Source: Bacilli bacterium (GTDB lineage: Bacteria > Bacillota_I > Bacilli_A > RFN20 > CAG-826). From it: a stretch of DNA of 12,166 nucleotides. A model generated the notes under the pieces. That model saw nothing but the letters and a program-made list of their open reading frames with translations. It did not search any database and was not told the origin of the DNA. The translations under genes and the position numbers were made by a program. Location of the stretch: assembly GCA_045597865.1 (NCBI GenBank), contig JAZLKX010000017.1, positions 1 through 12,166 of the forward strand. The letters run 5' to 3'. Positions 1 through 12,166 of the stretch are shown piece by piece (position 1 is the first letter of the stretch; the number at the start of each line of letters is the position of its first letter).

Positions 1-59
1 AGACAAGACAAGACAAGACAAGACAAGACAAGACAAGACAAGACAAGACAAGACAAGAC
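1..59 (+). repeat. Terminal tandem pentamer array (AGACA)11 + AGAC
   Basis: Read directly from the sequence. Confidence 0.98.
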
Positions 60-141
60 CTATACCATATAGGGAAACTATACAGTATAGGCCAATAGAG
101 ATAGGATAAGATTATAGAGATCTATCATAGACTTGGACAAA
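1..141 (+). repeat. Left inverted terminal repeat (141 bp)
   Basis: 1..141 is the exact reverse complement of 12026..12166; identity breaks at 142/12025. Confidence 0.97.
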
Positions 142-1239
142 AGCATGTTCAAAGTCTGATCCTGTCAAATCATCTAAATATAATGTATGATTATTCATCA
201 TAGAACTACTTATTAGTTTTATTAGTTTTCTAGCTGGTGGTAAATCAGAAGTATAATTATAGTGTTTGAAATTAGGAATAGTAGGTTTATCAGTTAGAGT
301 AAAATACTCTAATCTCTTAGCTAATCTATCAGGACTTACATATAACCATATACCATCATTCTTCTCAACAGCGTAGCAATATAATCTATATTGTTCAGCT
401 TCTAATATAATTCCGATATTAGGTAATATATCATTATAAAAGTCATCTAAATTGAACTAAGGATATGCTCCTACTTGCCATTGTCCTTTTACGATCATAT
501 CTTGTCTTTGATTATTGAACGTAAAGAACGATCTAGACTCATTACTTTGATTTACGGGATTACAATATTCAATAGCTACACTATTTTCTACGCCATTCTC
601 GCCCATATAGCTATATCTTTGTATCTGTCCAATGTGTAAGTCGCGCACATTGATATTCATTTCAGCTAAGATTTGGTTATTGCGGTTTACGGTATTACCT
701 AACATATATACTACCATATTTTCTCTATTACGCTTTATAGTAGATATAAAGTTCAAGAATAACTCAAACTCGCCTTTTAGCTCAAATTGGTTTGGCCCAA
801 CTAAGAACTCTTCATAACAAATAGTGTCTACGTTTGGATAAGATACCGATTTATCATAGGTACTTTGGTTTAGCGCAAAGTAATATCCAATAGTGCCTAG
901 ATTTTCTTTTTTACTAGGACTATCTTCGTTGAAACCTAAGATCTGCCATTCACCTTTATAAGTCTTTATATAGAAATGATCATAACCAAATCTTTCATTT
1001 AGTCTTTCCTACATATAGCCGTTCAAATCATTCCAATAGTTGCCGACTCTCTTGGTTTCTATTTCTTCAGCTAAGCGACGAAGATAAGCAAATTGTTTTC
1101 CTGTTTCTAGCCAATGATCAAATGCCTATTTCTTATAAGCATAAGTTTTACCATTACCACGTCCACCAATAGCAATGCGGTAATTAGCTTTTGTTTCATT
1201 TAGCTAATCTAAACTATACCATTTTATTTCTTTACTCAT
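112..1239 (-). CDS. DNA packaging ATPase, phi29 gp16-like (375 aa with TAG read as sense)
   Basis: ATG at 1239 overlaps the upstream TGA (ATGA). Reads MSKEIKWYSLD*LNETKANYRIAIGGRGNGKT (Walker A), QFAYLRR, SYPNVDTICYEEF (Walker B), FISTIKRNRENMVVYMLGN. In-frame TAG at 1204-1206, 1126-1128, 1009-1011 and 457-459; ends at TAA 112-114. Confidence 0.93.
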
Positions 1240-1994
1240 TTCTTCCTCGTCGCACTCCAATCTACGCTCTTTCTGTGCTCAGCTTTTACCATAGCCTTTT
1301 GATATGGATCTAATCTATCATTATACATACCTTTTTCAATATTCTTTGCTATGCGGGTGTCGCCATTTGCTTCGTATAACGAGTCAAACTCTCCGCTTTG
1401 CTTCATTAGTCTCCAAGTCAAATCAAGTGGTTCATCTGTGCGGTAATTTTCATAAATCCAGTTTGCGATATCCGTAGTTGGTAAAGCACGCATAGAGCTA
1501 TTATTACAATAGGCTTCAATAATCTCTTCACTTGGAACACCACTACCACGTAGCTTGTTCAATAAAACTCGTAATTTGTCCATTTCGGCGCCGCTTAGCA
1601 TTTTTGGTTCATATCCACGTTCTTTCAAAGCTTTTGCCAAATTTTCATTACCTCGTTCTCGCATAGCTCTTAGTCCAGCTACAGAACTTTTAGCACTTCT
1701 AAGTGCTATTGCTAATTCTTTGACTCGTCTTCTAGCTTCGTTGATTTCGGCAGAGCCACTAGTATCAAACTCGCTAACTTCGCCAAATACACCGAAAATT
1801 TCATCGCTTACAGCGGTTTTGATAGCTACGCCTTGTAAATAAGATATACCAATCTCAGCTTCGTACTCTACATTCTACATTGCGGATTGAATTTCATATA
1901 GCTATTTATTCAATTGCTGACTATATTTATCAATATACTCATTCAATTCTTGTAAGCTAAGTTTATCAATCTCTTGTTCAGTTAGAATTTTCAA
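1236..1994 (-). CDS. 252-aa helical protein, candidate terminal (primer) protein
   Basis: AAAGGAG RBS then TTG at 1994. Open into ORF 1236..1664 except for TAG at 1902-1904 and 1875-1877; ends TGA. The terminal-protein call is inferred only from size and context. Confidence 0.55.
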
Positions 1995-2011
1995 TAATTC
2001 TCACTCCTTTT

Positions 2012-2143
2012 TTAGTAATTTTTATAATATTCATCAATGGCGTCCCGCACTATATCAGATACAGAACTACCAGTCAATGATACTAAATATTCTAATTCAG
2101 CTTCTATTTCTTCAGTTAGCCGAACAGTTATTTTTTTGTTCAT
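2012..2143 (-). CDS. Ribbon-helix-helix (CopG/Arc-like) DNA-binding protein, 43 aa
   Basis: AAGGAG RBS; MNKKITVRLTEEIEAELEYLVSLTGSSVSDIVRDAIDEYYKNY, with beta-ribbon ITVRL and SVSDIVRDAI helix; not in the ORF track. Confidence 0.82.
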   Translation of the reverse strand: MNKKITVRLTEEIEAELEYLVSLTGSSVSDIVRDAIDEYYKNY

Positions 2144-2489
2144 TACCTGTCTCCTTTCTTATTGGGTGATTGTGGTAATATTCTCTTATGTTGTCTAATA
2201 AAGACATCCACTCCAAATTGTCTACATTATTATTCTTTGGATTTTCATCTATATGATTTACTGTTTTCAAATTATTGGGATTTGGCAAAAATGCTTGCGC
2301 GACTAGTTGATGAACATAATAGTTCTTACGGTTTCCGTTTTTACACAACATAACACGCAAATATCTATCGCCATTTCTACTACCCGCACTCAAAAATTTA
2401 TTTCGTCTATAACTCCAAACTTGTCCACGAGTATTCACTGCGTATAAGCCTTCATAACCTTTTATGTCTTTCATTTCACAAATCATCAT
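2112..2489 (-). CDS. NUMOD4-HNH homing endonuclease-like protein
   Basis: N-terminal KDIKGYEGLYAVNTRGQVWS (NUMOD4); YVHQLVAQAFLPNP...VNHIDENPKNNNVDNLEW (HNH). Confidence 0.92.
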   Translation of the reverse strand: MMICEMKDIKGYEGLYAVNTRGQVWSYRRNKFLSAGSRNGDRYLRVMLCKNGNRKNYYVHQLVAQAFLPNPNNLKTVNHIDENPKNNNVDNLEWMSLLDNIREYYHNHPIRKETGNEQKNNCSAN

Positions 2490-2719
2490 TCTAGTACCCC
2501 CAATCCTTCATCTAAATCCATAAGATAGTCTTCAAAAACGTAAAGTGCGATTCTTAGTTTTTCTGTTCTATCAGCTAACCATTCTTTTGTAGGCTCATCC
2601 TGCTCTTGGAAATAATCCAAGCAAGTGTCATTGTAGCGTTCTTTTAGCCAATCGTGATACTTCTTTAGTTCTGAAGTATTGCTTTCCTCAAGTTGTTGAT
2701 AAAATAAATTAGTGTCCAT
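2486..2719 (-). CDS. Hypothetical acidic helical protein, 77 aa
   Basis: AAAGGAG RBS inside the polymerase 3' end; overlaps both neighbours; ends TGA. Confidence 0.75.
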   Translation of the reverse strand: MDTNLFYQQLEESNTSELKKYHDWLKERYNDTCLDYFQEQDEPTKEWLADRTEKLRIALYVFEDYLMDLDEGLGVLE

Positions 2720-4250
2720 TTTTTATATCTCCTTTTTGTATAATATAGGTTAGTAAATCTAACTCTCTTTCTAATTGGCCACCAATAGTAAATGGTATTC
2801 CAATTTTCTTTTTATCTTCTATTTTATATCGTCCCGAATATTTAGCCGGTATGACGATAGGTTGTGTATAATCAATATCGTTCATTTTTAGATATTGAGT
2901 AGCACGTTTGCTGTTTAGGCCTGAACATTTTACTATACCGTTTTGAATATATTGTTTACAGCCATAACCCACGAATGAGACTTCTTCTTCTTCAAGCTCC
3001 CATTTTCCAAGAGTTGGATGTAATTTAGCTCTTTCCGCATTTTCTGCTTCTATAATTGCGGTTAGGGGTTTGAGCGATTTGATACTATCTGTATCCCAAT
3101 ATATGGCGCGAGGGCCTGCTTTATAGAGCATCCGCATCAAATCATATCTTCCGTAGCTTGCTGTCCATAGCCCTATTACCCACGGCCGCATTTTATTATT
3201 TGCTTCTTCTAACGTTTTATTATAACGAAGCGGATCTTGCGTAAATAAACCAAAAATACTATTTAGTAAAATCTTTGCTTTTTTATAAGCTTCTGAACCT
3301 TTTGGTTCATTTTCTTTTATATCAAATTGTGTTTTGATTAGTTCTCGAAGTGGTTCCCACAATTTACCTTTGATAGCGTGATATCCAAAAGCAGGAAGTC
3401 TTTTTATTTTGAAATCATATCCCATTTTCAATATTTCATAATCTACTTTAGTTAGCACTGGATACCGTGTTGCTTCAATTTTCAAAAAGTCAATCCCGCA
3501 CTTAGGCTTCACATATTCAAATTCAAATTGCGCTACCCATAAATATTTGTTATAATATTCTAATAATTCAGGTTTTACATTAGTTTTTACAGTCATTTTA
3601 CTCATTGGGAAATCTTGCGTCATCATTTCATAAGGATAACTACTCTTGATATCGTAAGCCCAAACTTTCGTGGGTTCATAAGTCCAACCGGGACTTATAT
3701 CACATAAACCACCACGATACAACTTTGAATATAAATCATAGCTATATTGATCTAATTGTAATTTTTTATATTCGTTTTTGAGTTCTAATTGTTCTAACAT
3801 TTTGCGGATCCGGCCAGTTTGCGTTTTCGGTAATCTATACATATATTTATATTCTTCTAAACCTTGCCGCACGCCCTCAACTATAATGTCTACTGGTTGT
3901 GAATCTTCATCTAAGCCAAGCTCTAAAGCCCATTCACTCAAATCGGTATAGCCGCAATAGTCTGTTGCTGAGCGAAGCGTTATATTATCAAAACCAGTTT
4001 TCATTATTTTGTTTTCATCCATTGAATTTTCTACTTTACAATTGAAATCTACTACACCTTCCAATAGGTAATAAGTAAGCGACAAATCAGCCATAAACAC
4101 TATCATTTCTTTATTTGTTATATCTTTTAGCGTTTGCGCGAAAGCTTCAAAACCTATTCCAGCATAATAGTTTTCATTTTCTTTTATTGTCCAACTTTCG
4201 TCGTCTTTTAGTTCGGCGCCTATTGGAACATTATAATATTTAGCTGGCAT
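2709..4250 (-). CDS. Family B DNA polymerase, protein-primed type, with apparently degenerate exonuclease domain
   Basis: YRGG, YDIKSSYP (motif A), KILLNSIFG (motif B), YWDTDS (motif C), LGKWELE, KQY. Confidence 0.93.
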   Translation of the reverse strand: MPAKYYNVPIGAELKDDESWTIKENENYYAGIGFEAFAQTLKDITNKEMIVFMADLSLTYYLLEGVVDFNCKVENSMDENKIMKTGFDNITLRSATDYCGYTDLSEWALELGLDEDSQPVDIIVEGVRQGLEEYKYMYRLPKTQTGRIRKMLEQLELKNEYKKLQLDQYSYDLYSKLYRGGLCDISPGWTYEPTKVWAYDIKSSYPYEMMTQDFPMSKMTVKTNVKPELLEYYNKYLWVAQFEFEYVKPKCGIDFLKIEATRYPVLTKVDYEILKMGYDFKIKRLPAFGYHAIKGKLWEPLRELIKTQFDIKENEPKGSEAYKKAKILLNSIFGLFTQDPLRYNKTLEEANNKMRPWVIGLWTASYGRYDLMRMLYKAGPRAIYWDTDSIKSLKPLTAIIEAENAERAKLHPTLGKWELEEEEVSFVGYGCKQYIQNGIVKCSGLNSKRATQYLKMNDIDYTQPIVIPAKYSGRYKIEDKKKIGIPFTIGGQLERELDLLTYIIQKGDIKNGH

Positions 4251-4253
4251 TCT

Positions 4254-4337
4254 TTAGTCCTCGATATATTTTTTAGCGATAATAGCCATAGGAATTGTGG
4301 CTAAGGCAACCCCTATAAAATAATAAATAGCAAACAT
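4254..4337 (-). CDS. Small single-pass membrane peptide, 27 aa
   Basis: AAAGGTG upstream; MFAIYYFIGVALATIPMAIIAKKYIED then TAA; fills the intergenic gap. Confidence 0.6.
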   Translation of the reverse strand: MFAIYYFIGVALATIPMAIIAKKYIED

Positions 4338-4356
4338 TTCACATTTCACCTTTCTT

Positions 4357-4557
4357 TTATAATACTCGATAGTGATAACAACCATCATATTTTTCGGTTC
4401 TCTCAACTAAACCACGTTTTACCATAGCCGTCATAGTGGCTCCGGTAATCTTTTGTCCCGTCATTTCACTAAAGTCGCTAACACACCAATAGCGGTTGTT
4501 CATTAGTCTTTGCGGGATAGCGTTTTTGATTTCTTTGTGTAATTTGTTGTAATTCAT
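4357..4557 (-). CDS. Small winged-helix-like DNA-binding protein, 66 aa
   Basis: AAAGGA RBS; CVSDFSEMTG...TMTAMVKRGLVERT...HYRV resembles a wHTH. Confidence 0.6.
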   Translation of the reverse strand: MNYNKLHKEIKNAIPQRLMNNRYWCVSDFSEMTGQKITGATMTAMVKRGLVERTEKYDGCYHYRVL

Positions 4558-4579
4558 AATTATTTCCTTTCAAAATTAT

Positions 4580-4666
4580 TTATTTATTTATAAGCCAATC
4601 AACTAAAAGCGCTCCGGTGATAGCTCCAATTGTTGCGGAAGTCCAACCTAAGAAAAACATTAGCAT
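4580..4666 (-). CDS. Small hydrophobic membrane peptide, 28 aa
   Basis: AAAGGAG RBS; MLMFFLGWTSATIGAITGALLVDWLINK then TAA. Confidence 0.65.
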   Translation of the reverse strand: MLMFFLGWTSATIGAITGALLVDWLINK

Positions 4667-4842
4667 TTTGTATCTCTCCTTTTTTCAATTATTTTCAACA
4701 AAGGTAATTCTTCGAGCAAATCCCATATGTCATTGTCTAACATTGGCCTTTCTTCTTCTCGTCCTTCTGCATGTAAATAATAATCCATGCCTTCTGGCGA
4801 TAAGTAATCCATATCGTCGTCTACTGTAATTTTCTTTTTCAT
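4660..4842 (-). CDS. Hypothetical acidic protein, 60 aa
   Basis: AAAGGAG RBS before ATG 4842 (MKKKITVDDDMDY...); the track start at 4920 has no RBS. Confidence 0.7.
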   Translation of the reverse strand: MKKKITVDDDMDYLSPEGMDYYLHAEGREEERPMLDNDIWDLLEELPLLKIIEKRRDTKC

Positions 4843-4911
4843 AGCATTTTCTCCTTTTGGTTTTTTTGAAATTTGTAAGACATATATCTTTTCAAAAATA
4901 TATGTATAGCG

Positions 4912-5080
4912 GCTACCCACTAGGGGTAGCTCACCAATAGGAAGGAAATATAAAATTTGGTATGTAGGTGGGAGTCATCGCAAAATCAGCCCGGGTTGAA
5001 AGGCTTCCTTGTTTCGCTCGTCCCTAATTCGCTCCCGACGAATTTTATTCAGTGAAGGGTTTGAGGCCTTATTCACTTTC
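4912..5080 (-). ncRNA. Candidate structured RNA or long leader (possible pRNA equivalent)
   Basis: Starts just downstream of a promoter; non-coding; hairpins at 5051-5077, 5026-5044, 4988-5005 and 4912-4930. Confidence 0.35.
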
Positions 5081-5087
5081 TATATAT

Positions 5088-5116
5088 ATTATACAATATT
5101 TTTTTATAAAAATCAA
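5088..5116 (-). promoter_or_regulatory. SigmaA/sigma70-type promoter for the early/replication block
   Basis: TTGATT (5116-5111), 17-nt spacer, TATAAT (5093-5088). Confidence 0.75.
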
Positions 5117-5127
5117 ATAAAGGAGTC

Positions 5128-5156
5128 GTGAGGCCGGGTTCAACGGCCGGCCCCAC
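5128..5156 (-). terminator. GC-rich stem-loop, possible terminator or RNA element downstream of the structural operon
   Basis: GTGGGGCCGG-loop-CCGGCCTCAC, 10-bp stem with one G-U; the U-tract is offset and weak (GACTCCTTTATTT). Confidence 0.4.
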
Positions 5157-5279
5157 TATTAAGGAAGGAGTTTTATAATGACTTGTGAGGTTTTCCTTAC
5201 CTCACCATATATATATGAAAATACTGGAACTCAAATTTACTAGTTTTACCCAAAATTTTATAGAAATTTTTAGCAAATT

Positions 5280-6770
5280 TTAGTCGAGTATAAAAATACC
5301 AGAAGAGTTCAAAGTATCATCAACAGGACGTGTTCCTACAGACATACAACCCGTTGGGGATTTCAAACGAGCATTTGCGGTTTGAACATATCCACGCAAA
5401 GTAGATAGATTTCGCATATGATAATCTGGCTTACCGTACATAGCTTGAAAGTTATCTAAGTCTACTGGCTCATTCCAGACAAATTTAGCGCCACCTGTGT
5501 AGCCCGAATTGAAATCTGGATGGCCACCGGCAGAACCAGTCATAGAAGTTCCACCAATTTCAGATGTTTCTACCAATTGAGCAATTTGAGCTGCTGATTG
5601 GATCGCTCCGAAAGTAGCTGAAGCAGGTTTAGCGGATACCGTGGCAAGTTGCGCAACCATACCTATACCTTGAGAGGCATATTGTGCCCAAGAAACATAT
5701 GTGCTATCATAACCAAATGGGAACGTATTCGGCAAAGAAGCCAAAACAGTTATATCTTCTCGTGGGTTGCCATTTACCATAAGTATATACTTTACGGTTT
5801 GTCCAGTATAACTTACCGAAGGTAAATATCCTATACTCGTAATTTTATCTACATTTAGTTGACTTAGATTGCCTTCTATTTTAGCACCATTACGAATATT
5901 TAGGGTAAATGTTCCCTTTTTTCTATAACCATAAAGCTCAATACCACCCGAAGGAATATCGTAATAAACAGGATCGCAATAAGAATCGCTTACTGGAGCT
6001 GATGTGGGGACATTGCCCCAATATTCATAAGCTACATCGCCTTGTGGTAAATCTATACTCCACAAATCCGCACCCGATGATTCATATCTATATAAAGTAA
6101 TAGTATTTGTAGCTCTAATATCTTTTTTATTTATCAAATCAGCGGTTATCATTCCACAACCTAGGATACACTAACCAAATTCTTTTGAATGTTCTTCATC
6201 TGTTTCAAAATTTTCTGTAAAATCATACCACGCTTTTAGCGTAAAAATATAAGTAGCAACGCCATCTGGGGCGGCTAATCTTTGTGGATGTCCAGGATTA
6301 TAAACGGGATAAGAACATACATTAGCATATACAAAAATATAATCTCCGTTAGCATTATCGGGATATCTTTTAGGAGTTATCATATATTCAGAAGTAGCAG
6401 ATACTCTATCAAGATACTTAGCTCTATCATCAAATAAATAATCACTTCCAAGAGAAGAGTAGTTTACCATAGCCGTGTCATTGAAACAGCCATCGATCCA
6501 AGCCATTTCTAATATATCTTCTGTAATATAATATGTGTAAAGCCCATTCGCATTAGTAGAAGCCATAGTCCAACCACAATAAGTTAGATTATACTTCTCA
6601 TCTCTATAAACGCAATAATTACTCGGCCATTTTTCCGATAAAACGAAACTGGCGGAGCCAAAGTAGAAGTCGCCATAAACTTCGGCTTCTACTTCGACTA
6701 CTTTTGTTGAGTGATTTATTTTGTTTACGTCATTCTTGCGGCAAGGGCATTGATATAACGTAATTTTCAT
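5280..6770 (-). CDS. Tail protein (possibly phi29 gp9 tail-knob-like), 496 aa with TAG read as sense
   Basis: ORFs 6171..6770 and 5280..6152 are in one frame, separated only by TAG 6171-6173 (KEFG*CILGCGMIT). N-terminal MKITLYQCP and C-terminal MYGKP...GYVQTANA...LNSSGIFI resemble phi29-like tail proteins. Confidence 0.75.
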
Positions 6771-6775
6771 TTAGC

Positions 6776-7801
6776 TTATCCTCCAACAATAATCTGAGAT
6801 GTGAATCTAGGTTTATCTACCCAAAGAGTTAGTTCACTTGGAGTTGTATAGCCTAGTTCTTCACGAATAGCCTCGCCCGCAAATATAGTACTAAATATAG
6901 GAGTGATATTCTTGGTTGGGGCAGTAATTGTTAGAGATTGTAAAGCCAAACGGCTATTATATGAGTAATAAAGTGTATCATAAGCACCAGATACAGTATG
7001 CGCAGTTCTAATAATACATAAACTATTATATAAAACGCTTACGGCACGTCCAGTAGAATGAGCAACTTCAATATTTTGTGTTAGGCTATTGAACTTAGCT
7101 TGTGCGCCATTATTCAACTGAACCATACAATTTGTCTTAGTAATAGTTTCACCTTGATAATCAGTAGAATTCAAAACTAAGTAAGGACTTGTGCCGCCGC
7201 ACTTCCAATTTACATAGCTTGTATAGATGCTACAACCTTCAATAGTAATAGAACCACCTTGAACAGTATTATCAAAAGTACAGTTCTCAAAGTGTAAACG
7301 GCTATTATAAAACGTTAGTGTTTTAGTGCCTGTTTCTCTTACTACTGGTTGTAGTATATAAGCCTCAGGTGCGGGAGTGAAGCCAGTTTCCTTTTCGCCA
7401 TAAATGTGAAGTGTAATTCCACTAAATAAATATTTTACATAGTTGAAAGGATAAGTTCCAGGAGTAGTGAGTATAATAAACAAAGAGTTAGCTTCTTTAT
7501 TTAGAGTTTCAAGTGCCTTATCAACATTGCGGAAAGGCGTATTTTCTGTAAGGCCATCGTTTGTGTCATCACCGTTTAGGCAATCGACATAACGACGTGT
7601 ATAAGTGGAATCAATCCAATGATCATATTCAATGGCATCAATTCGTTCACCTAACGCCGCGATAGCTTCATCTTGCTCATCATTTTTCTCGTCAATACGA
7701 GCAACATCTTCTTGAAGTTCTTCAATAGCTTCTACTATTGGATCGCCATCAAGTTCTATATCTCTGTAGTAATGACTTCTATCAAATTCAGCAGGATTCA
7801 T
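6776..7801 (-). CDS. Tail spike / receptor-binding appendage with beta-helix, 341 aa
   Basis: GGAGG RBS before ATG 7801; N-terminal coiled coil; YVDCLNGDDTNDGLTENTPFRNVDKAL cap motif typical of pectate-lyase-like beta-helices. Confidence 0.75.
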   Translation of the reverse strand: MNPAEFDRSHYYRDIELDGDPIVEAIEELQEDVARIDEKNDEQDEAIAALGERIDAIEYDHWIDSTYTRRYVDCLNGDDTNDGLTENTPFRNVDKALETLNKEANSLFIILTTPGTYPFNYVKYLFSGITLHIYGEKETGFTPAPEAYILQPVVRETGTKTLTFYNSRLHFENCTFDNTVQGGSITIEGCSIYTSYVNWKCGGTSPYLVLNSTDYQGETITKTNCMVQLNNGAQAKFNSLTQNIEVAHSTGRAVSVLYNSLCIIRTAHTVSGAYDTLYYSYNSRLALQSLTITAPTKNITPIFSTIFAGEAIREELGYTTPSELTLWVDKPRFTSQIIVGG

Positions 7802-8021
7802 TATTGTCTGCCTCCATTTCAAGTTTTATTTCAATGCTCTCTAAACGAGCGTTAGTTTCTTTTTGATCGGCTTTTACGCCACATATTTCTTCTTTTACAC
7901 TAGTGATCAAGTCTTTTAGTTCGCTAATGATTTTTGAGTTGAACCACATAAAGTAAGCTAGGCAACCAATTGCGGCGCCATTATTTACCAATAGTGAAAC
8001 AATTGCTTCTATTGTTATCAT
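7788..8021 (-). CDS. Holin-like protein (one N-terminal TM helix plus coiled coil; BhlA/YvrJ-like)
   Basis: AAAGGAG RBS is best spaced to ATG 8021 (alternative ATG 8027); IVSLLVNNGAAIGCLAYFMWF followed by a charged coiled coil. Confidence 0.65.
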   Translation of the reverse strand: MITIEAIVSLLVNNGAAIGCLAYFMWFNSKIISELKDLITSVKEEICGVKADQKETNARLESIEIKLEMEADNNESC

Positions 8022-8033
8022 TGTCATTCTCCT

Positions 8034-8600
8034 TTACATGGACAACATGAAATAGTCGTCGAATTCGGCTAGATAACGTTCTTTCAAACGATATAATCTA
8101 GCATACATTTCTTCAGTAGATTCTTCAATAGCACCCAAGGTTTGAACACCGATGTTGCCATAAACGTGGCCATGGTGATCTAAGGCTCCGTCCGCACTAG
8201 TATTAGCGTTGGATTTACCTTCACTCTCACTTACTGGCTTTTTGATACCTTTGTCCATTGGGAATTGAGAACCAAGAGTGTCAGAGTTTACAGAACTTTG
8301 AGCTTTGTTTTTAGTTGCTTCTTCAATATCTTCAAAGCGATCATAGTTCCATAGTGGGTTTTCAGTCGTTTGTTCGGATAAACCGATTAGACTAAATAAT
8401 TTATTATAATGTTCAGCGAGCAAGTCGGCTCTAGCTTGAACCGCATAAGCCTAGGTATCTACATCTGGATAAGCCATTTCCTCAAAAGCAAAATGACGTT
8501 TCATCAAATCGCGCATTTTAGAGTCGTCTATCCAATCCAAATGGAACTCAATATTCAGAAATAGTTCCGGATGATCCTTCACTAAGTTGGGATAATACAT
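8034..8600 (-). CDS. Lower collar protein, phi29 gp11-like, 188 aa with TAG read as sense
   Basis: GAGGAGG RBS, ATG 8600; MKRHFAFEEMAYPDVDT*AYAV...HYNKLF; NPLWNYD; HGHVYGNIGV; EFDDYFM. TAG at 8451-8453. Confidence 0.85.
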
Positions 8601-9462
8601 TCTCAACTGCCTCCTCGCCACGTATTTTTACAGAAATTGAAGTGCCGAAAAGCTTATTGCACTCATCACAGGCTTTCTGTCTAGCCTCTAAGAAGTAAGC
8701 ACGGTTTACTAAGATTTCTTGATCGTTAGCATGAACTTCTGCGGTTAGGTTGCGCTCGCCTTTAGTAAGGTTTGCCGCACTCTCATTGATACCGAAGTGA
8801 ACAAAGAAATCATTTAGTACTGTCCGCATATCTTGTAAATATTTATCAGTAAGATAATCACTAGCGGTAGCATATACCGGGATAGAACCGTCATCTAAGA
8901 TAGAATCGGCAATACCTTTTTTGATAATTGTTCCCAACTTGCCGGCGTCCGCATCATCAACCATCTTACGAATTTGCTGAGCTTGAGCGTCTCCATTAGC
9001 AACGAATACTTTAGTTAGTCGGCTATTGGATAAGCCAACGTTCATTGAAGTTTGAATTTTAGCTAACTGACGCGCATAGTATTTTACGGTAGATAAAACA
9101 TTTACCGCGAATTTATTATTTTTGATCCAAACGCCATTGACACCAACAGTAGCATTGATATCATGTTTGAGCGCAGGGTTTACAATACGCAAGGCTGTTG
9201 GCTACATATAAACATCGAAGCCAGTCTTTGCGCAACGAAGGCCTCTAACTTTTCCTTGATCATCTTTTACGAATGCGGCCTGGCCTTCTGTCATAAGAAC
9301 CCACTCTAAATAATCAGGATTTATATCTCCGTTTTCAATCTCAGGGCCTTCCCATTGATACATTGAAACAACTTTGTTCCAAAGAACATTATACCAATAA
9401 GAAGCTAATTTGTCTTCTGGACGCCCACTTTTACAAAACGGATTAGCATTATCATATAACAT
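8548..9462 (-). CDS. Connector/portal (upper collar), phi29 gp10-like, 304 aa with TAG read as sense
   Basis: GGAGG RBS; MYQWEG...YLEWVLMTEGQAAF; GFDVYM*PT; FGINES...KGERNLTAEVHAND; ARQKACDECNKLFGTSISVK. The two track ORFs are joined in frame by TAG 9202-9204. Confidence 0.92.
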
Positions 9463-9480
9463 TGTTTACCTCCAATTCTG

Positions 9481-9531
9481 GGCCCGCCTTATAGGCTGTA
9501 GCCCGTAAAGGGCCGGGGGCCGAAGCCCCCG
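9481..9531 (-). promoter_or_regulatory. GC-rich multi-hairpin between capsid and connector genes
   Basis: CGGGGGC-TTCG-GCCCCCG (9531-9514), then GCCC-TTTAC-GGGC and GCCT-ATA-AGGC. Confidence 0.6.
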
Positions 9532-9561
9532 AATTTATATAAAAAGAGACAATGGAATTTA

Positions 9562-10716
9562 TTAGTTTAGAGTAAAGATAACTGCGTTAGCATCTTTATT
9601 CAAAATATATTTAGTCTGGACATTGATCCAGTTGTTGAAGTATTCACCACGTGCGTTGAAAGGAGTTGTGCGAACAGCTTCATGGCAAACATACTCACCG
9701 ATAGCATATTTGTCGAAAAGAACAGCAACGATTGGGCTGGACTCGGTTTCGCCTTCGATAGAAGAATCGCCAACAACGAAAGGATCATCTTCACGCTGCC
9801 AGAAAGGAACAACTTCATAATTGCCCATAGATTCTGGACGGCGAACATCTTGAACAACGTAAGTAGAGATACCGCCATCAAGAGCGCCAACAACCATTAG
9901 CTTCTGATCTTCATCTGTCTGAGGAGTGAAGGTTTTTGCGTCAGAAATGTTGTAGCTAGTAGATGGATGAGCAATCTTAGAACGAACAGTCTTGATTACG
10001 TGAACCGCAAACTTGACGAATTCGCCATTGTAAAGAGCGTTATCTTTAGTAAGAGAAGCGCCATAAGTGTCGTTGTAAAGGGAAACTAGAGGATAAGATT
10101 GAGCTGGTGCGTAAACAGACTCAGCTTCATCACTTTCAGCTTCAATAGCTTTGATAAGAGCGTCAACTAAACCAAGACGGCCTTCCTCACGAGCAAGCTC
10201 ATTACTATTCAAAGCATAGCGAATCTTAGCGTCTAAGAAACGATTCATTGCTTCTGGAGAAGCGAAAGCACCCTCGAGTTCAAGATACTGAATGGTGACT
10301 GGGATCTGATAAGCATTATCCTTTACGAAATACTGAACATTCTGGCCACCTTTGTTGATTACATACTGATCAACGGTTTCACCATCTTCTAACTTGACGA
10401 AAGCAGCTTCACGAGTCAAATAGAAGTTGTGAGTGATCATTTCGATAACGCCATTAGCGCTCATCTGTCCACGAATCAAAGAAGTGAACTTGCCGCTATA
10501 ATCACGAGCGGTATCGATAGAAAGTTTTACTTTGTTTGCGATTTCGATAGCAAAAGAGTTCATGAATTCCTGAACTTCAGCTTCAGTCATAGCAGAACCT
10601 AGTTTCTTACCAAAATCTACGAATGTAGTTTCATCAACGATTTCAGCAGCAGTACCACCAGTAGCGCGACTTACTAACTCGTTAACGGTTTTCCAAAAGT
10701 TATTATTAATTGCCAT
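9562..10716 (-). CDS. Major capsid protein, 384 aa
   Basis: GGAGG RBS; directly upstream of the connector; C-terminal TTPFNARGEYFNNWINV...NAVIFT resembles phi29-like capsid proteins; ends TAA TAA. Confidence 0.85.
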   Translation of the reverse strand: MAINNNFWKTVNELVSRATGGTAAEIVDETTFVDFGKKLGSAMTEAEVQEFMNSFAIEIANKVKLSIDTARDYSGKFTSLIRGQMSANGVIEMITHNFYLTREAAFVKLEDGETVDQYVINKGGQNVQYFVKDNAYQIPVTIQYLELEGAFASPEAMNRFLDAKIRYALNSNELAREEGRLGLVDALIKAIEAESDEAESVYAPAQSYPLVSLYNDTYGASLTKDNALYNGEFVKFAVHVIKTVRSKIAHPSTSYNISDAKTFTPQTDEDQKLMVVGALDGGISTYVVQDVRRPESMGNYEVVPFWQREDDPFVVGDSSIEGETESSPIVAVLFDKYAIGEYVCHEAVRTTPFNARGEYFNNWINVQTKYILNKDANAVIFTLN

Positions 10717-10776
10717 TTGAGTTTACCTCCAAAAAATTTTATTTTTTATAATTTGTGTGACGAGCCAATAGGCGAG

Positions 10777-11301
10777 TCACTTAGCGTATACATAATATTT
10801 TGTTCCTGCTGGGAAATTACCAGTAGAAGGGCTAATTGAGAATTTATCGAATTTATTGTGTAGGTGTCCTGTAGTAGCTGCTTGAACAAGTGCGGTATTG
10901 CTGTTAGCTGCGCCTGTATCAACGTGATAATAATCATCTGTAATCTTATCAACATGAATATCTATAACTCTACCCGCATTTGCTAATACAGTGCCGATAC
11001 TACCACTACCTACTTCATCTTGCCCATTGAAGAATCTAAAACTACCACCAACATTTCCTGATGTTCCAGTAGCAACTTCAATATGGATGATTGCGCAATC
11101 GCATCCATATAAACCATGTTCGATGCTAATAATATTAGACTCTTCTGATAGTGTTCCAGACTCTACTAGTTCTGCAGGTTTCTTCAAATTATCAACATCA
11201 GTATCTAGTTGCCCAACCTTATCATTGATACTATTGAGCACTTGCTTCATAAGATAAATTTCTTGTTCGGATAAATCCGAGGTCCATTCATTGAATAACA
11301 T
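10777..11301 (-). CDS. Putative head fibre/decoration protein, 174 aa
   Basis: GAGGTG RBS; short coiled coil then beta-rich domain ending FPAGTKYYVYAK; N-terminus paralogous to 11316..11729. Confidence 0.55.
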   Translation of the reverse strand: MLFNEWTSDLSEQEIYLMKQVLNSINDKVGQLDTDVDNLKKPAELVESGTLSEESNIISIEHGLYGCDCAIIHIEVATGTSGNVGGSFRFFNGQDEVGSGSIGTVLANAGRVIDIHVDKITDDYYHVDTGAANSNTALVQAATTGHLHNKFDKFSISPSTGNFPAGTKYYVYAK

Positions 11302-11315
11302 TTCAGTGTTTCACC

Positions 11316-11729
11316 TCACTTGTGGAATACTATATCAAACTCTACGCCCATACCAGAAGGTGATGTAGTAGAAAGTTCAATCTTATCTAATACACTAAAC
11401 TTCTGAATGGCATGAGGTGTATCAAATATTACACTACGAACTGTTCCACCTGAAGCACCATAAGAAAGGATACCATCTAGCATTTGATATAAAGTACCAT
11501 TAGCGAAAGTAAATGTATTAGCATCATTTAGTTTAGCAGTTACTTGCCCATCATAACTATCAGGTATCCGCAAACTAAAACCTGTATAAGGTCCTTCGAT
11601 TACTGTTGGTTCTGCTACAGTTACACGCACTAACTTAGATTCATTACTTGGCTTCAAAGCTTCTTCAATAGCTTGTTTCATCAACATGATTTCTTGTGCG
11701 GACGTACCATCAAATTTATTGAATTTCAT
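11316..11729 (-). CDS. Putative head fibre/decoration protein paralogue, 137 aa
   Basis: GGAGG RBS before ATG 11729; MKFNKFDGTSAQEIMLMKQ resembles MLFNEWTSDLSEQEIYLMKQ. Confidence 0.55.
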   Translation of the reverse strand: MKFNKFDGTSAQEIMLMKQAIEEALKPSNESKLVRVTVAEPTVIEGPYTGFSLRIPDSYDGQVTAKLNDANTFTFANGTLYQMLDGILSYGASGGTVRSVIFDTPHAIQKFSVLDKIELSTTSPSGMGVEFDIVFHK

Positions 11730-11730
11730 C

Positions 11731-11907
11731 TTAGTCTTCGCCTCCATCAACACCTAACCAAGCTAAGAACGGATCTTGAGTAGGTTTATTATTATTAGGT
11801 TCTGTAGATGGTTCTGTATTATTTAGCTTTTCTGTAAGTTGTGATACCTAAGCGGTTAGACTTGCTAAATCTTCAGCCATCTTATTCATAAGTTCTTGTG
11901 GTTCCAT
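11731..11907 (-). CDS. 58-aa coiled-coil protein, possible scaffolding protein (TAG read as sense)
   Basis: AAAGGAG RBS; MEPQELMNKMAEDLASLTA*VSQLTEKLNNTEPSTEPNNNKPTQDPFLAWLGVDGGED; TAG at 11848-11850; TAA stop lies 1 nt before the next ATG. Confidence 0.7.
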
Positions 11908-11945
11908 TATCTCTATCTCCTTTACTTATTCTTTTATCTAGATAT

Positions 11946-11974
11946 ATTATAACAAAAATTTTGACTTTTGTCAA
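11946..11974 (-). promoter_or_regulatory. Consensus sigmaA promoter for the structural operon
   Basis: TTGACA (11974-11969), 17-nt spacer, TGt-TATAAT (11951-11946) with extended -10. Confidence 0.88.
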
Positions 11975-12025
11975 ATATTTCTTTGTCTATATATTATGAA
12001 AATTATAGTAATCGTCTTGAAAGGA

Positions 12026-12166
12026 TTTGTCCAAGTCTATGATAGATCTCTATAATCTTATCCTATCTCTATTGGCCTATACTGTATAGTTTCCCTATAT
12101 GGTATAGGTCTTGTCTTGTCTTGTCTTGTCTTGTCTTGTCTTGTCTTGTCTTGTCTTGTCTTGTCT
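12026..12166 (-). repeat. Right inverted terminal repeat (141 bp)
   Basis: Exact reverse complement of 1..141. Confidence 0.97.
12108..12166 (-). repeat. Terminal tandem pentamer array (TGTCT)n, i.e. AGACA on the minus strand
   Basis: Read directly from the sequence. Confidence 0.98.

Follow-up and report, generated by a model that had tools for sequence, protein, structure and literature searches.

A complete phage genome and its genes

The window analysed here, a stretch of 12,166 nt, is contig C17 in full, taken from a source assembly of 58 contigs (1.74 Mb). It holds the whole linear genome of a very small podophage, phi29-like and protein-primed, referred to below as the C17 phage, whose genes contain ten in-frame TAG codons; the question is where the activity that decodes them comes from. 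An earlier reading of the DNA made from its letters (the sequence-only reading) had taken the genome to be complete. This held, as the window is the whole contig and the arms of its inverted terminal repeats (ITRs), 141 nt each at 1-141 and 12026-12166, are 100% complementary. With TAG as a sense codon, 17 genes, all on the minus strand, covered 90% of the sequence. Gaps of at least 30 nt summed to about 1.2 kb, ITRs counted in, and comprised the two ITR-bearing ends and the stretches 4251-4356, 4558-4659, 4846-5279, 9463-9561 and 10717-10776. Two sigma-70-like promoters indicated two same-strand operons. One, a sigma-70-type promoter with a TG extension and 12 of 12 hexamer matches (11946-11974, minus strand), precedes the structural operon, and the other (5116-5088, minus strand) precedes the replication and packaging genes.

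The TAGs were found in six of the genes. The DNA-packaging ATPase (112-1260; 382 aa), which is phi29 gp16-like, matched PF05894 (1.2e-17) and the PHROG 2150 terminase family (1e-31) and contained four, at residues 19, 45, 84 and 268. The phi29 gp10-like connector or portal protein (8548-9462; 304 aa) matched PF05352 (2.1e-28, residues 21-282) and PHROG 2038, with one TAG at residue 87; the gene directly after it (8034-8621) encodes a 195-aa protein with a TAG at residue 57. A 496-aa protein of the tail region (5280-6770), of no known family, had a TAG at residue 200, and its position after the tail gene suggests that it is a tail protein as well. The first gene of the structural operon (11731-11907; 58 aa) had a TAG at residue 20. 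The remaining two TAGs, at residues 31 and 40, were in the gene for a conserved, all-helical 252-aa protein (1236-1994) located between the polymerase block and the ATPase gene. This protein had no family match in Pfam or PHROGs, a search of the protein collection returned only the protein itself, and its AlphaFold2 model (predicted local distance difference test score 61) had no Foldseek match in the PDB at E ≤ 0.001. Its position alone makes it a candidate terminal protein.

TAG was absent from the polymerase and capsid genes and from the small early genes. The family B DNA polymerase (PolB; 2709-4250; 513 aa), of the protein-primed organellar/viral type, matched PF03175 (6.8e-8) and PHROG 1907 (1.9e-26), and the major capsid protein (9562-10716; 384 aa) matched the Phi29_MCP family PF25622 (6.4e-21) and had 645 relatives at E ≤ 0.001. 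Together with the ATPase, these matches verified that the phage encodes its own capsid, polymerase and packaging motor, as the sequence-only reading had stated. Codon bias differed in the capsid gene, which we regard as the most highly expressed gene: its glutamine codons were CAG in 11 of 13 cases and CAA in two, compared with 13 CAG and 92 CAA in the other 16 genes together.

The other genes were TAG-free too. Between the polymerase gene and the 252-aa protein lie genes for an acidic 77-aa protein with no family match (2486-2719; best Atlas score 0.81, a lead only), an HNH homing-type endonuclease (2112-2489; 125 aa; NUMOD4 and HNH_3 by Pfam and PHROGs) and a ribbon-helix-helix DNA-binding protein (2012-2143; 43 aa; PF01402, 2.2e-7). 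Proteins of 66 aa (4357-4557) and 61 aa (4660-4845), neither with a family match, are encoded on the other side of the polymerase gene; the latter starts at an ATG behind the Shine-Dalgarno-like sequence AAAGGAG. The structural operon includes proteins of 145 aa (11316-11753) and, upstream of the capsid gene, 174 aa (10777-11301), both with no family match. A 348-aa tail protein (6776-7822) matched hydrolase and tail fibre families of PHROGs weakly, and a 79-aa protein (7788-8027), hydrophobic at its N-terminus and with a coiled-coil tail, had weak matches only; judged by these sequence features, the latter is possibly a membrane-lysis protein.

The ITRs begin with about 12 tandem AGACA units at each genome end (1-59 and 12108-12166), so that the termini are telomere-like pentanucleotide arrays. 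These repeats could serve sliding-back in protein-primed initiation. The start of one related locus, L125, also consisted of short tandem repeats, and perfect ITRs of at least 40 nt were present in 72 of 238 related loci. The starts of five ITR-bearing loci (L027, L083, L085, L088 and L106) resembled sequencing-adaptor sequence, which suggests that adaptors had been ligated to the true physical genome ends and then carried into public assemblies.

The largest non-coding stretch (4846-5279, minus strand; 434 nt) consists of two G+C-rich, terminator-like hairpins after the structural operon, the second promoter and a leader of about 185 nt. The leader folded no better than shuffled sequences (z = -0.88). 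The stretch had no similar sequence among 239 related loci and no Rfam family match, and a search of the window for a packaging RNA (pRNA) gave no Rfam match. This intergenic leader region is a possible location of a pRNA.

TAG as a sense codon and the search for a decoder

All ten in-frame interruptions in the 17 genes were TAG: four in the ATPase gene, two in the gene of the 252-aa protein and one in each of the other four. Their first bases on the minus strand are 11850, 9204, 8453, 6173, 1904, 1877, 1206, 1128, 1011 and 459. In-frame TAA or TGA codons did not occur in any of the 17 genes, which terminate with TAA (ten genes) or TGA (seven) and never with TAG. Given the genome's own codon content, 29% of the single-base routes to a stop lead to TAG, and the probability that random nonsense changes would yield TAG in ten of ten cases is P ~5e-6.

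Each of the ten TAGs falls inside homology-aligned coding sequence. The alignment of the ATPase with 18 homologues was unbroken across all four of its TAGs. The Pfam match of the connector encloses its TAG, and tblastn alignments to the two closest relatives with available DNA, the metagenome contigs L177 and L178, spanned residues 2-284. For the 195-aa protein, tblastn alignments to the same contigs covered residues 10-195 and 3-193, and the 252-aa protein aligned to their syntenic open reading frames (ORFs) across both TAGs by tblastn and alignment. The 58-aa protein aligned across its TAG to syntenic ORFs of 63 aa (L178) and 64 aa (L177). Homologues of 506 and 547 aa matched 100% of the 496-aa protein; because they cover it whole, the TAG at residue 200 does not separate two genes. 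These results established that TAG is read as an amino acid in the C17 phage, as the sequence-only reading had proposed.

Across the ten TAG columns, the nearest relatives read A, F, M, P, R, E, D/K, E, T/Y and L. Glutamine was present in close homologues at some of the ATPase columns and was dominant at none. An attempt to derive the inserted residue from the alignment columns gave no consistent answer. By precedent alone, TAG probably inserts glutamine.

We then looked for a decoder within the genome. ARAGORN, the check that the sequence-only reading had named, found no tRNA in the window. Infernal cmscan with all 4227 Rfam families at E up to 10 gave two chance-level matches, neither of them a tRNA, and our own hairpin scan of the window found no anticodon-like CUA hairpin that had a T-loop motif at the distance expected in a tRNA. 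The absence of a visible suppressor tRNA was thus borne out. The non-coding stretches named in the sequence-only reading were correct and tRNA-free; it had missed two gaps of about 100 nt (4251-4356 and 4558-4659), which proved to be tRNA-free too. Its statement that no release factor or synthetase gene is visible agreed with Pfam and PHROGs searches of the 17 products, among which there was no release factor, synthetase or tRNA-modifying enzyme.

The relatives were examined in the same way. They comprised a first set of 80 loci from IMG/VR and a second of 151 from IMG/VR and metagenomes, all encoding a related ATPase and not dereplicated, and no tRNA was found in the 80, in the 151 or, therefore, in any of the 231. 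A genome that is complete, only 12 kb long and 90% coding, with no tRNA in 231 related loci, makes a hidden tRNA in the C17 genome very unlikely. The core-gene homologues of the related loci contained two in-frame stops in total over several hundred alignments; on this sequence evidence, the related loci use the standard code. Five IMG/VR loci of about 11.5-12.5 kb and 43% G+C (L041, L049, L054, L057 and L077) showed a rise in crude ORF coverage of 0.07-0.13 when TGA was read through. They are probably not recoded, as their core genes had no in-frame stops by tblastn.

L177 and L178 had 42% (ATPase), 51% (connector; to L178 over residues 2-284) and 42% (capsid) identity to the C17 phage. They carry the gene set of the window, their homologues have no interruptions, and TAG terminates 2 of 16 genes in L177 and 1 of 15 in L178, indicating that the recoding was derived within a standard-code, tRNA-less lineage. 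In both contigs the structural module is on the strand opposite the polymerase-ATPase module, whereas the window has both on one strand; a whole-module inversion therefore separates them. No closer relative with DNA was found among the genome contigs scanned, and viral contigs contained relatives at no more than 37% (ATPase) or about 26% (capsid) identity. The protein collection held ATPase, capsid and tail relatives at 46-59% identity, whose contigs are about 12.4-12.6 kb long. Of 400 other genomes of the same family as the binned bacterium, 5 carried a distant phi29-type capsid gene (22-27% identity), and these matches are too distant to bear on host or code.

Source of the decoding activity

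A complete genome, TAG as a sense codon and no visible decoder make supply from outside the simplest reading. We consider amber-decoding activity supplied from outside the genome to be the most economical explanation and, on balance, the probable one. Under this explanation, the C17 phage would be equivalent to a multiple-amber mutant of natural origin. UAG suppression would be needed for its connector, tail, packaging and possibly priming proteins, and the phage would bring no suppressor, so that virions could be made, and the genome possibly replicated, only in a cell that is already amber-suppressing. The suppressing activity might be provided by the strain that is the true host, by a prophage resident in it or by another phage. 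The sequence-only reading had also placed decoding in trans, which is consistent with ours; for the code-15 helper phage that it offered as a source, the bin, which is only part of the community and is not proven to be the host, gave no positive evidence.

Several results weigh against outside supply, and most of them concern the bin that holds the contig. ARAGORN found 75 tRNAs in the bin, none of which had a CTA, TTA or TCA anticodon. The release factor genes prfA (RF1; 499 bits) and prfB (RF2; 481 bits) were both present, PylS was not found in the bin, and TAG terminated 75 of 561 long ORFs (~13%) on seven host contigs. Thus the bin as assembled, which is the only available candidate host, cannot supply suppression, and the suppressing or recoded host for which the sequence-only reading had allowed did not turn up there. 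Neither recoding nor a suppressor was found in the co-binned phage elements described below (C52 and C46). The C17 contig is linked to the bin by binning alone: a comparison with the other bin contigs gave no short DNA, spacer-like or protein match. Host prediction from CRISPR spacers, also put forward earlier, was likewise unproductive, as a simple scan (Tandem Repeats Finder and k-mers) found no array on the main contigs and the only repeat array was on the 1.8-kb contig C47. Finally, the residues at the TAG columns are too diverse to single out glutamine.

Five additional weak tRNA matches were reported by Infernal in the bin, and we read the alignments of four of them (C1:689-757 excepted) as well as the sequence of the C38 match. 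C46:40350-40421 (L100:1851-1922) forms a cloverleaf in which the anticodon stem is 4 bp long and the loop, of 5 nt, includes CUA. The anticodon arm of C46:43222-43309 (L100:4723-4809) is longer by about 17 bases, and that of C38:3583-3652 is truncated. None of the matches that we read is a canonical amber suppressor, and we keep these three as leads only.

Two further phage elements were found in the bin. C52 (266,469 bp, 39% G+C; loci L258-L267) is a jumbo phage with a 1037-aa tail sheath protein, a PolB, the anaerobic ribonucleotide reductase NrdD and many large ORFs with no assigned function. Its code is the standard one, and its 26 tRNAs, none of them a suppressor, are divided between the two ends, suggesting that the contig is circularly permuted and that the tRNAs form one large array. 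Contig C46 contains, at about 38.5-44 kb (locus L100), a prophage-like region with three Bro-N/antirepressor-type genes and a tRNA cluster; it also uses the standard code and has no suppressor. Reading TAG through slightly raised ORF coverage in C13, C48, parts of C52, C1, C21 and C28. Recoding was rejected for them; in the ORF lists of C13, C48 and C52, readthrough merely fused neighbouring genes and revealed no broken genes.

The binned bacterium is probably wall-less with a small genome, since a search of the bin, which is 96.9% complete, found neither mraY nor murG, and the genomes of the genus are 0.8-1.5 Mb. It keeps RF2, indicating that TGA is read as a stop. A wall-less host would explain a phage with no recognisable lysin. 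The sequence-only reading had supposed that lysis, too, might be borrowed from a helper; if the binned bacterium is the host, the missing lysin calls for no such help.

The alternatives differ in what they take the decoder to be. It is unlikely, in our view, that the C17 phage is a genetic-code parasite in the strict sense, that is, structurally self-sufficient with the amber suppression needed by its connector, tail, packaging and perhaps priming proteins set by another mobile element (a recoded prophage or a co-infecting phage). If this were true, the recoding would have evolved without the phage ever owning decoding machinery. A special case of supply in trans, an obligate code satellite that completes its cycle only with a co-infecting or lysogenic larger code-15 phage lending a tRNA-CUA, also appears unlikely. 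It would suit a genome and lineage without tRNAs, to which the usual model of suppressor first and stops afterwards cannot apply within the C17 genome; the other phage DNA in the bin makes mixed infection of one host conceivable, and the available text of one preprint speculates that recoding could be a way to sense co-infecting phages of the same code (10.1101/2021.08.26.457843). However, no other TAG-recoded contig and no tRNA-CUA was found among the 58 contigs of the bin, the co-binned jumbo phage is a standard-code phage whose 26 tRNAs include no suppressor, and obligate simultaneous infection is demanding for a lytic 12-kb phage. A quite unlikely alternative, which would place the activity within the phage itself, is that a TAG-free small early protein blocks or depletes RF1 and near-cognate host tRNAs then read UAG. 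The 61-, 66- and 77-aa proteins, with no family match, could be candidates, and all ten TAGs are at variable columns that tolerate several residues, which would suit ambiguous decoding; modification of the host translation machinery is raised in the same preprint, as far as its available text goes (10.1101/2021.08.26.457843). Yet these small proteins resemble no translation-related family, and four TAGs in the ATPase gene would demand very efficient readthrough.

The remaining explanations carry little probability. That the true host is not the binned bacterium and reads TAG as sense, through a chromosomal amber suppressor or a pyrrolysine system, is improbable. Host assignment by binning leaves room for it, and basic residues, which would fit insertion of a lysine-like residue, are frequent at some TAG columns of distant relatives, although this signal is weak; the bin itself has RF1 and neither PylS nor a CUA tRNA, and we know of no bacterial lineage with general TAG reassignment. 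A non-canonical decoding RNA, encoded by the 434-nt intergenic region or by either ~100-nt gap, is in our view very improbable. The intergenic region exceeds the genome in G+C content, contains hairpins and lies behind a good promoter, but it yielded no tRNA-like match at E = 10 with permissive filters and no CUA hairpin coupled to a T-loop, and its fold was no better than that of shuffles. Undetected non-canonical tRNAs are suspected in the available text of the preprint cited above (10.1101/2021.08.26.457843). A defective genome, or TAGs that are assembly or sequencing artefacts, is the least credible explanation. The exact genome is on record as one contig only (P0001 and P0272, each with 1 member and 1 contig); against this explanation, the interruptions are solely TAG, with no TAA, TGA or frameshift, both ITRs are unbroken and the genes avoid terminating in TAG. 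Outside supply remains the explanation that we prefer, and the low likelihood of a hidden tRNA sharpens the question of whether an outside element or a small phage protein is the decoder.

Comparison with known systems

The C17 phage is a distant member of the small phi29-like podophages. It shares with them a size of about 11-12 kb, ITRs, a gp16-type ATPase, a gp10-type connector, a Phi29-type capsid and a protein-primed PolB. It differs in its one-strand gene arrangement (the nearest metagenomic relatives have divergent modules), in the use of TAG as sense and in its pentanucleotide ends. The closest cultured phages were the Amedibacillus phages AD70P2 and AD70P3 (Guelinviridae), with about 25% capsid identity, followed by small enterobacterial phages such as Salmonella phage astrithr.

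Laboratory amber (sus) mutants carry essential genes interrupted by UAG, which can be translated only on suppressor hosts. By analogy, the C17 phage would work similarly. Unlike theirs, its ten ambers are natural, are fixed in the genome of a wild phage and fall at non-conserved positions, and TAG has been purged from its stops. Phage satellites of the P4, PICI and PLE types are residents of the host genome that lack genes for the capsid and/or replication. The C17 phage has in common with them only the idea of depending on another element: it encodes its own polymerase, capsid, connector, tail proteins and packaging ATPase, and its linear, ITR-ended genome is a free molecule. As no helper was identified in the bin either, the label of satellite given to it in the sequence-only reading is unsupported.

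Phages that recode TAG with no suppressor tRNA of their own are common. In the available text of two survey preprints, a TAG suppressor tRNA was detected in only 40% of TAG-recoded phage genomes (10.1101/2021.08.26.457843) and in 375 of 715 table-15 phages, 52% (10.1101/2023.12.19.572299). Recoded phages with no detectable suppressor thus make up 48-60% and were already known, and the absence of the tRNA, from which the sequence-only reading had argued, is not unusual. As far as their available text goes, both surveys state that decoding without a suppressor is not fully understood and suspect undetected tRNAs (10.1101/2021.08.26.457843; 10.1101/2023.12.19.572299). We found no paper on a phi29-like phage with code 15 or stop-codon reassignment; the supplementary tables of the surveys may list such genomes.

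The code 15 gut phages described in the available text of the first survey (crAss-like, Lak and Garnet/Amethyst/Topaz phages; 10.1101/2021.08.26.457843) resemble the C17 phage in having TAG in structural and packaging genes with a standard polymerase gene. Low G+C, TAG not used as a terminator, an apparent host with the standard code and, in many of them, no suppressor tRNA are further points of likeness. The smallest named recoded clade in that text is Topaz, with genomes of 22 ± 3 kb (10.1101/2021.08.26.457843). The C17 phage is about half that size, is a phi29-like protein-primed podophage and has only ten TAGs. What is new is therefore the genome size, the phi29-like lineage and the firmness with which a tRNA is excluded. 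TAG recoding is extended to phi29-like phages and below the sizes of the clades named in that survey (10.1101/2021.08.26.457843). The suspicion of a hidden tRNA is hard to dismiss in genomes of at least 100 kb, and the C17 phage offers a clean case. With 17 genes and ten TAGs, it is a minimal system in which the way that tRNA-less recoded phages decode TAG can be tested gene by gene.

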